The notes under the pieces: generated by a model
Told to the model about the DNA's origin: nothing
Databases searched by the model: none
Seen by the model: the letters and a program-made list of their open reading frames with translations, nothing else
Part shown: positions 14,068-14,500 of the stretch, piece after piece
Layout: each line of letters opens with the position of its first letter
Position numbering within the stretch: position 1 is the stretch's first letter
NCBI GenBank assembly: GCA_951406725.2
Contig: OX597823.1
Coordinates: forward strand, 95,232,001-95,296,000
Direction of reading: 5' to 3'
DNA from: Octopus vulgaris
Lineage: Eukaryota
Length of the DNA stretch: 64,000 bases
Made by a program: the position numbers and the translations under genes

Positions 14068-14500
14068 ATATATATGAAAAACAAGTAAAAAATAGAAAAT
14101 GCTAAAATAATTTTATAGTGAACATTTCAGTACCGGTTTCGGTCATTTTGAGACCTTTTCAACTGTAACGATTAAATAATTAAATTTAGAAAAATTAGAA
14201 GAAAAGTTTTTTAAAAGAATATTTCTATAGTAGTGTTCAGATTTAAGTGGCATTCTGCCTTTCTCTGACTCCCTTGTTTGCACTTGCAAACAAGGGAGTC
14301 AGAGAAAGGCAGAATGCCACTTAAATCTGAACACTACTATAGAAATATTCTTTTAAAAAAACTTTTCTTCTAATTTTTCTAAATTTAATTATTTAATCGT
14401 TACAGTTGAAAAGGTCTCAAAATGACCGAAACCGGTACTGAAATGTTCACTATAAAATTATTTTAGCATTTTCTATTTTTTACTTGTTTTTTCATATATA
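14068..14500. mobile_element. Near-perfect foldback (~215-bp arms, 2-nt spacer) carrying an HHR in each arm
   Basis: Centre tttgca-ct-tgcaaa at 14277-14290; the arms are reverse complements; the element sits in (TA)n. Confidence 0.9.
14403..14440 (+). ncRNA. Minimal type I hammerhead motif with U3-A8 in place of C3-G8 (mirror copy at 14128-14165, minus)
   Basis: cag-TTGAAAA-ggtc(tcaaaat)gacc-GAAAC-cg-GTA-ctg; palindromic stem III accggt; GUA triplet. Confidence 0.72.

Follow-up and report, generated by a model that had tools for sequence, protein, structure and literature searches.

A foldback of two near-identical arms in (TA)n

An inverted repeat lies at 14068-14501 of the window, by which we mean the whole 64,000-nt stretch of Octopus vulgaris DNA analyzed here (Table 1). 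Its arms align without substitutions, the only differences being single-base gaps in an A run and in a T run. The preliminary description of this region had called it a perfect foldback; the inverted repeat is real, and the two one-base homopolymer gaps make it near-perfect only. The 2-nt spacer (14283-14284) and the (TA)n setting given there were both recovered, with (TA)n found on either side. When the arms are instead mapped onto the element from which they derive, they overlap by 2 nt (14285-14286). A further 31 nt of the left arm, overlooked in the preliminary description, belong to the tail of the element; the right arm has no tail and is the shorter of the two by 4 nt. Each arm contains a hammerhead motif with the layout described previously, namely a minimal type I motif whose core has U3 and A8, whose stem II measures 4 bp and whose stem III is palindromic.

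The preliminary description named a foldback sequencing artefact as something that would refute it. An origin of this kind, in sequencing or assembly, is extremely improbable: there is no mirroring of the flanks, the arms differ in length and only one of them has a tail, both ends stop in (TA)n at the two defined ends of the family, and 70 matches with varied junctions share the layout, which recurs with different junctions at dozens of loci.

Table 1. Features of the foldback locus, in window coordinates.
Feature	Position	Strand	Basis
(TA)n target, left side	13972..14042	.	TRF
31-nt element tail, left arm only, unit positions 4413-4443	14037..14067	-	mapping to L035 unit
Left arm (unit positions 4412 to 4192), pseudo-LTR at the 3' end of the Penelope-like element, 5'-truncated	14068..14286	-	mapping
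Minimal type I hammerhead motif with U3 at 14162; cut predicted to follow A17, at 14131 (cut position taken from standard hammerhead numbering)	14128..14165	-	
Arm junction: 2-nt spacer (as inverted repeat) or 2-nt microhomology (as element segments)	14283..14286	.	
Right arm, 5'-truncated 3' end of the Penelope-like element without tail, unit positions 4196 to 4412	14285..14501	+	
Minimal type I hammerhead motif	14403..14440	+	sequence, pattern, folding
Stem I of the + motif	14403-14405/14438-14440	+	
Core of the + motif, U3 (14406) to A9	14406-14412	+	
Stem II of the + motif	14413-14416/14424-14427	+	
Palindromic stem III of the + motif	14431-14436	+	
A17 of the + motif	14437	+	
(TA)n target, right side	14494..14518	.	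TRF

A probable exon, which we take to resemble the first loop of SLC22-type transporters, lies at 13512-13734 (+) and had no Pfam or PDB match; downstream of it, a weak MFS_1 match was found at 21673-22116 (+). The foldback is therefore probably intronic in a transporter gene, and would yield a long double-stranded RNA.

The arms are the 3' end of a young Penelope-like element

Both arms represent the pseudo-LTR, or 3' end, of a Penelope-like element (PLE) that is young and 4.4 kb long. A first look at the 2.8-Gb genome with the right arm gave 695 candidates; of the 42 matches listed, 41 are 100% identical to it, and many lie in divergent pairs. Comparison of loci places the arm at the 3' end of a 4,412-nt unit. 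The copy at locus L032 contains a 784-aa frame (2565-4916) in which an RT domain (RVT_1, E 2.7e-8, above the cut-off) is followed in the same frame by a GIY-YIG domain scoring just below the cut-off (E 3.8e-4, 21.1 bits against 22.6). A CX4CxxC linker lies between RT and endonuclease (EN) in the L032 translation, in which GxKF, DKG and CCHH-type motifs, named as in PMC8557442, were also recognized by eye. The family further presents partial tandems forming pseudo-LTRs (L035, L104), inverted truncated copies (81 pairs) and the 31-nt tail, a sequence found again in the L035 tandem ahead of the 5' region of the following unit, and its ends adjoin (TA)n in nearly all of 49 short foldbacks. Judged by these sequence features, the element is an EN+ PLE with C-terminal GIY-YIG, probably of Neptune or Nematis type, the clades to which a CX2-5CxxC linker has been assigned (Craig et al. 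2021, PMC8557442). Besides RT, GIY-YIG and linker, the Neptune/Nematis-type PLEs of that study agree with it in targeting (TA)n, in being 5' truncated, in forming partial tandems, and in having both an inverted truncated copy and, at one end, a tail of 30-40 nt. The octopus element differs from them in an upstream frame that overlaps the RT frame at -1, the overlap containing the heptamer U UUU UUA (L032:2588-2594; around unit position 1253); the Fig. 1 legend of PMC8557442 does list an optional frameshifted ORF1. The heptamer is intact in 10 of the 11 rows matching the site, in which L011 and L035 represent one copy and from which one further row was left out as a spurious match. It is a possible programmed frameshift site, and no strong structure was predicted 3' of it (-4.4 kcal/mol). 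A non-LTR retrozyme was considered and rejected, given that the arms stand head to head instead of forming short head-to-tail tandems and continue into an RT-coding element.

U3-A8 is the standard hammerhead core of the family

The motif in each arm contains a Watson-Crick pair between positions 3 and 8 (U3-A8), stems I and II, and a GUA triplet as NUH site, as in the cores of PLE hammerheads, and its identification as a PLE-type minimal hammerhead with a palindromic stem III holds. Rfam yielded no match in the window at its gathering score. Genome-wide, 1,765 exact copies of the 38-nt motif are present, and none when it is read backwards, so it is not a chance match. Only nine copies in total vary at position 3 or 8: five matches in which position 3 is not U (three C3-A8, one G3-A8 and one C3-G8) and four with U3 in which position 8 is not A (two U3-G8, plus U3-C8 in both arms of one foldback). 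When 92 arms from 46 foldbacks were collected through an anchor outside the motif, U3 was present in all 92 and A8 in 91, with one gap. Taken together, the 38-mer counts and the survey of 92 arms identify U3-A8 as the standard core of the family, settling the consensus check proposed for the UUGAAAA core in favor of fixation, and confirming that a CUGANGA descriptor misses this family.

The core itself has already been described for PLE hammerheads, with about 1,300 U3-A8 matches reported in Schistosoma mansoni in 2014 (PMC4209133), and natural U3-A8 covariation is known in hammerheads (PMC3088659). The octopus motif resembles minimal PLE hammerheads, among them the U3-A8 variant of S. mansoni Cercyon elements (Cervera and de la Pena 2014, PMC4209133), in being a type I motif in a pseudo-LTR with short helix I, palindromic positions 15.2-16.2, a U3-A8 core and, as reported there for PLEs, dual motifs on opposite strands 100-700 bp apart. 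It differs from what is reported there in its 4-bp helix II, with no extra base between positions 9 and 10.1, in the high uniformity of the family and in an A17 that can pair with U3.

The preliminary description had read the double change at positions 3 and 8 as a compensatory swap that argues for selection. A modest sign in that direction exists: among the 92 arms, 17 variant sites are common to at least three loci, and none of them falls in the 38-nt motif (P about 0.02), the corresponding figure at a five-locus threshold being 0 of 9 (P 0.13). Free positions, N7 and loop II among them, are invariant too, however, so the signal is not specific to catalysis, and the argument was overstated: fixation of U3-A8 in a young family is mostly inheritance from source copies. 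A single family copy, L055 (G000:C13:524776), carries the complete C3-G8 pair; its closest haplotype relatives (L093, L100) are U3-A8, and C3-G8 is there either the ancestral state or a reversion.

Other hammerhead families in the genome

A second family, a tandem repeat of ~362 nt, dominates a pattern with 1,463 matches (L058-L067, L001:2400-2700; G000 C1 and others). Under that pattern, which allowed only Y3 and R8, U3-A8 is present in 97 of the 98 copies listed, and N7 varies between A and C, with C in 23. The family, which often ends in an inverted unit, is retrozyme-like; it has C17, which would avoid U3-A17 pairing. Further tandem families of 353-360 nt (L068-L074, L079-L080, L083-L086) have a similar loop II and a C3-G8 core, whose descriptor gave 459 matches against 89 when reversed. 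Around the motif, the U3-A8 tandem matches one of two C3-G8 tandems over 27 nt at 81% identity (E 0.003) and the other not at all; because this homology is weak, covariation between the tandem families is suggestive at most. The U3-A8 tandem family gave no match to the PLE unit, and the C3-G8 units match it only in pieces of 14-17 nt. With over 3,000 pattern matches for two U3-A8 families against 459 for one C3-G8 descriptor, canonical searches undercount the hammerheads of this genome. Within the window, a C3-G8 hammerhead-like core with a long stem II and no adjacent stem I lies at 5805-5850 (+), about 370 nt before a (TA)n run, with a palindrome at 6042-6166.

The putative ribozyme is probably damped and is a passenger in the foldback

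In the folding predictions U3 pairs with the cleavage-site A17, at a probability of 0.85 for the monomer and likewise in the dimer, a pairing overlooked in the preliminary description. Opening of the hammerhead core is predicted to cost about 2.3 kcal/mol. The monomer fold is not more stable than shuffled sequences (z -1.17). Two copies are predicted to dimerize through the stem III palindrome at -26.9 kcal/mol, against 2 x -9.7 kcal/mol for the monomers. The proposal that this palindrome acts in dimers thus stands to the extent that cofolding pairs it between two copies; the foldback is a separate matter. There, one motif lies on each strand, and in a read-through RNA both would be buried in a predicted hairpin of 213 pairs (-333.5 kcal/mol), so the palindrome of the foldback is unrelated to dimer formation.

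Whether U3-A8 marks an efficient ribozyme under strong selection, as proposed in the preliminary description, can be weighed on this basis. The absence of shared variant sites from the motif in arms picked by an outside anchor, the full C3-G8 pair of L055, the recurrence of U3-A8 in the ~362-nt tandem family while its N7 varies, and the in vitro activity of U3-A8 in other hammerheads (PMC3088659) speak for it. On the other hand, G17 strongly impairs minimal hammerheads, a C3-G17 pair being the proposed reason (PMC3884650), and the predicted U3-A17 pair may by analogy be an equivalent inhibitory trap; metazoan PLE hammerheads cleave poorly in vitro (PMC4209133); and neither of the two foldbacks centred within 30 nt of the cut, which are all that were found there, has its junction at the cut site. 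Efficient self-cleavage under strong selection is therefore doubtful. The putative ribozyme would, in the RNA of the element itself, probably be slow and dependent on dimerization or protein, and further damped by U3-A17 pairing, as the folding model suggests. In this insertion, the hammerhead is a passenger.

Most inverted pairs carry one tail and arms of the same haplotype

All 33 mapped divergent pairs have exactly one tailed arm. Short foldbacks at 49 distinct loci (among 50 listed of 70 matches, and including three of the 33 pairs) comprise 46 with one tail, two with both and one with none. Over all distinct inverted pairs, a total that includes L164 (one tail) and L156 (none), one tail is present in 77 of 81, both in two and none in two; this is a non-random sample, drawn for the most part from the largest contigs and pattern matches. 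Copies without a partner in the examined stretch are tailed in three of 25 cases, a count that leaves out L104 and the third arm of L102.

The arms of a pair were compared at 18 diagnostic sites. They are identical in 58 of the 77 pairs with both arms aligned and differ at one site in 13, which places 71 of 77 at no or one difference, and at two or more sites in six; haplotype identity between loci amounts to 8.6% of 5,848 comparisons. In 11 pairs, variants private to the locus are common to both arms. At the other extreme, the arms of L110 differ at four diagnostic sites, and the six discordant pairs indicate that some insertions used two templates.

Symmetric junctions are concentrated along the unit. 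Per 30-nt zone, none was found at 4135-4165, 70 at 4172-4202, 11 at 4268-4298 and two at 4325-4355, counts that rest on different exact anchors whose conservation differs between zones. The rich zone corresponds to 115-145 nt before U3 and includes the junction of the window's foldback (unit positions 4192/4196). An apparent pile-up of arm starts at 4180 was discarded as an artefact of extension stopping at a common variant. A second stop zone may exist just downstream of the 5' tail, where the near-full-length copies L031, L100 and L169 end (unit positions 147, 158 and 112, respectively). Analogy with D. virilis raised the possibility of a GT..AG intron with its end immediately before U3; neither of two pattern matches to genomic copies lacking such an intron proved to be spliced, and the candidate L170 is an intact copy with point changes.

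Both cut ends probably prime reverse transcription on element RNA

The locus is genuine and, as a PLE insertion carrying a known hammerhead variant, ordinary. We consider it very probable that it arose as a single insertion of a young PLE, with two 5'-truncated 3' ends placed head to head in (TA)n and both cut ends likely priming RT on element RNA. Judged by the many sister insertions, both halves were likely copied from one RNA. The endonuclease would cut both strands in (TA)n, after which one DNA end may anneal to a TA-like patch before the tail and the other to a patch after it, most simply on the same RNA. Both cDNAs would then extend past the uncut hammerhead and end some 120 nt upstream of it, probably at the 5' end of the RNA in the upstream pseudo-LTR, and their ends would be joined by microhomology or short templated insertions. 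Run-off at a start site in the pseudo-LTR is plausible by analogy with Penelope of D. virilis, because its start site precedes an intron that ends at hammerhead helix I: transcription there starts in the pseudo-LTR, 46 nt before a 75-nt intron (PMC2377424), whose end maps to helix I (PMC4209133). Against a run-off start, the upstream partial copies in the autonomous tandems L035 and L104 begin much further upstream, at unit positions 2753 and 3438, outside 4172-4202.

Priming by both ends has a precedent in PAc (Poseidon of Anolis; Frangieh et al. 2024, PMC11167929), whose protein in vitro cuts and extends both strands, starts at two sites that flank the tail and uses uncut RNA, cleavage being unnecessary for insertion. 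PAc differs in belonging to the Penelope/Poseidon clade and in its C3-G8 core, and its report, in the portion considered here, is silent on whether inverted pairs have a single tail or arms from the same template, and on a run-off zone.

A single cDNA could alternatively snap back and copy itself into the second arm, as near-symmetric junctions with short microhomologies or templated insertions, and the shared haplotypes, would allow. The foldback in the window, with its longer tailed arm, is on its own compatible with this route, which needs the tailed arm to be made first and to be at least as long as the other. Among 23 clearly unequal pairs (leaving out the complex loci L037 and L097), however, it is the shorter arm that bears the tail in 11 and the longer one in 12, and two primings on RNA are therefore needed. 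Snap-back is thus contradicted as the general mechanism and excluded in its simple form; it can survive only for a symmetric subset of the pairs, and we regard it as highly unlikely.

The remaining question is whether one RNA or two served as template. One tail per pair and shared haplotypes favor a single RNA; the shared haplotypes could also have arisen if two RNAs were transcribed from one source locus, or if the arms later underwent gene conversion. In the two-template alternative, each cut end is extended on an RNA of its own; the palindromic stem III might tether the two RNAs, with the hammerhead as a dimer signal. The favorable predicted dimer energy, the six discordant pairs and the predicted dimerization of the PLE protein (PMC11167929) are in line with it, but by itself it explains neither the single tail of 77 of the 81 pairs nor the private variants shared in 11, and Naiads are reported with inverted insertions yet without canonical hammerheads (PMC8557442). 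We judge this alternative unlikely. The fuller version of twin priming on one RNA, in which two RTs follow one behind the other through the uncut hammerhead and run off at the 5' end while U3-A17 acts as a latch that keeps the ribozyme shut, is offered as a tentative proposal that we hold to be less likely than not.

Relation to published elements and other repeats in the window

U3-A8 cores and opposite-strand hammerhead pairs have been published for PLEs, as have copies that are inverted and truncated, tails on one side only and a preference for (TA)n targets, these last three in PMC8557442, which names the formation of inverted PLE structures as an open task. In literature searches of incomplete coverage, no paper besides PMC8557442 joined Penelope-like, octopus and hammerhead, and none found for twin priming concerned PLE insertion, judged by its title or the start of its abstract; the supplements of PMC4209133 and PMC8557442, and Repbase, may already contain the family. 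Its value lies at the family level: it is young and abundant, has intact reading frames, and follows countable insertion rules (one tail per pair, same-template arms and a sharp 5' stop zone) that are testable in an existing in vitro system.

Several other repeats are present in the window. A second PLE family at 47968-50292 (-) has an open 774-aa RT and GIY-YIG frame, whose protein is 48% identical to that of the foldback family, and ends in (TA)n; no canonical hammerhead was found downstream of the frame with the descriptor used. Fragments of a third PLE-like RT occur in a 4.1-kb inverted duplicate (28643-32764 and 59828-64000, 97.9%). An unrelated nested foldback of about 1 kb (11587-12826, 91.6%) has (TA)n on both sides and no RT match, and pieces of a Tc1/mariner-type transposase (HTH_Tnp_Tc3_2, DDE_3) lie at 9858-10867 (+).
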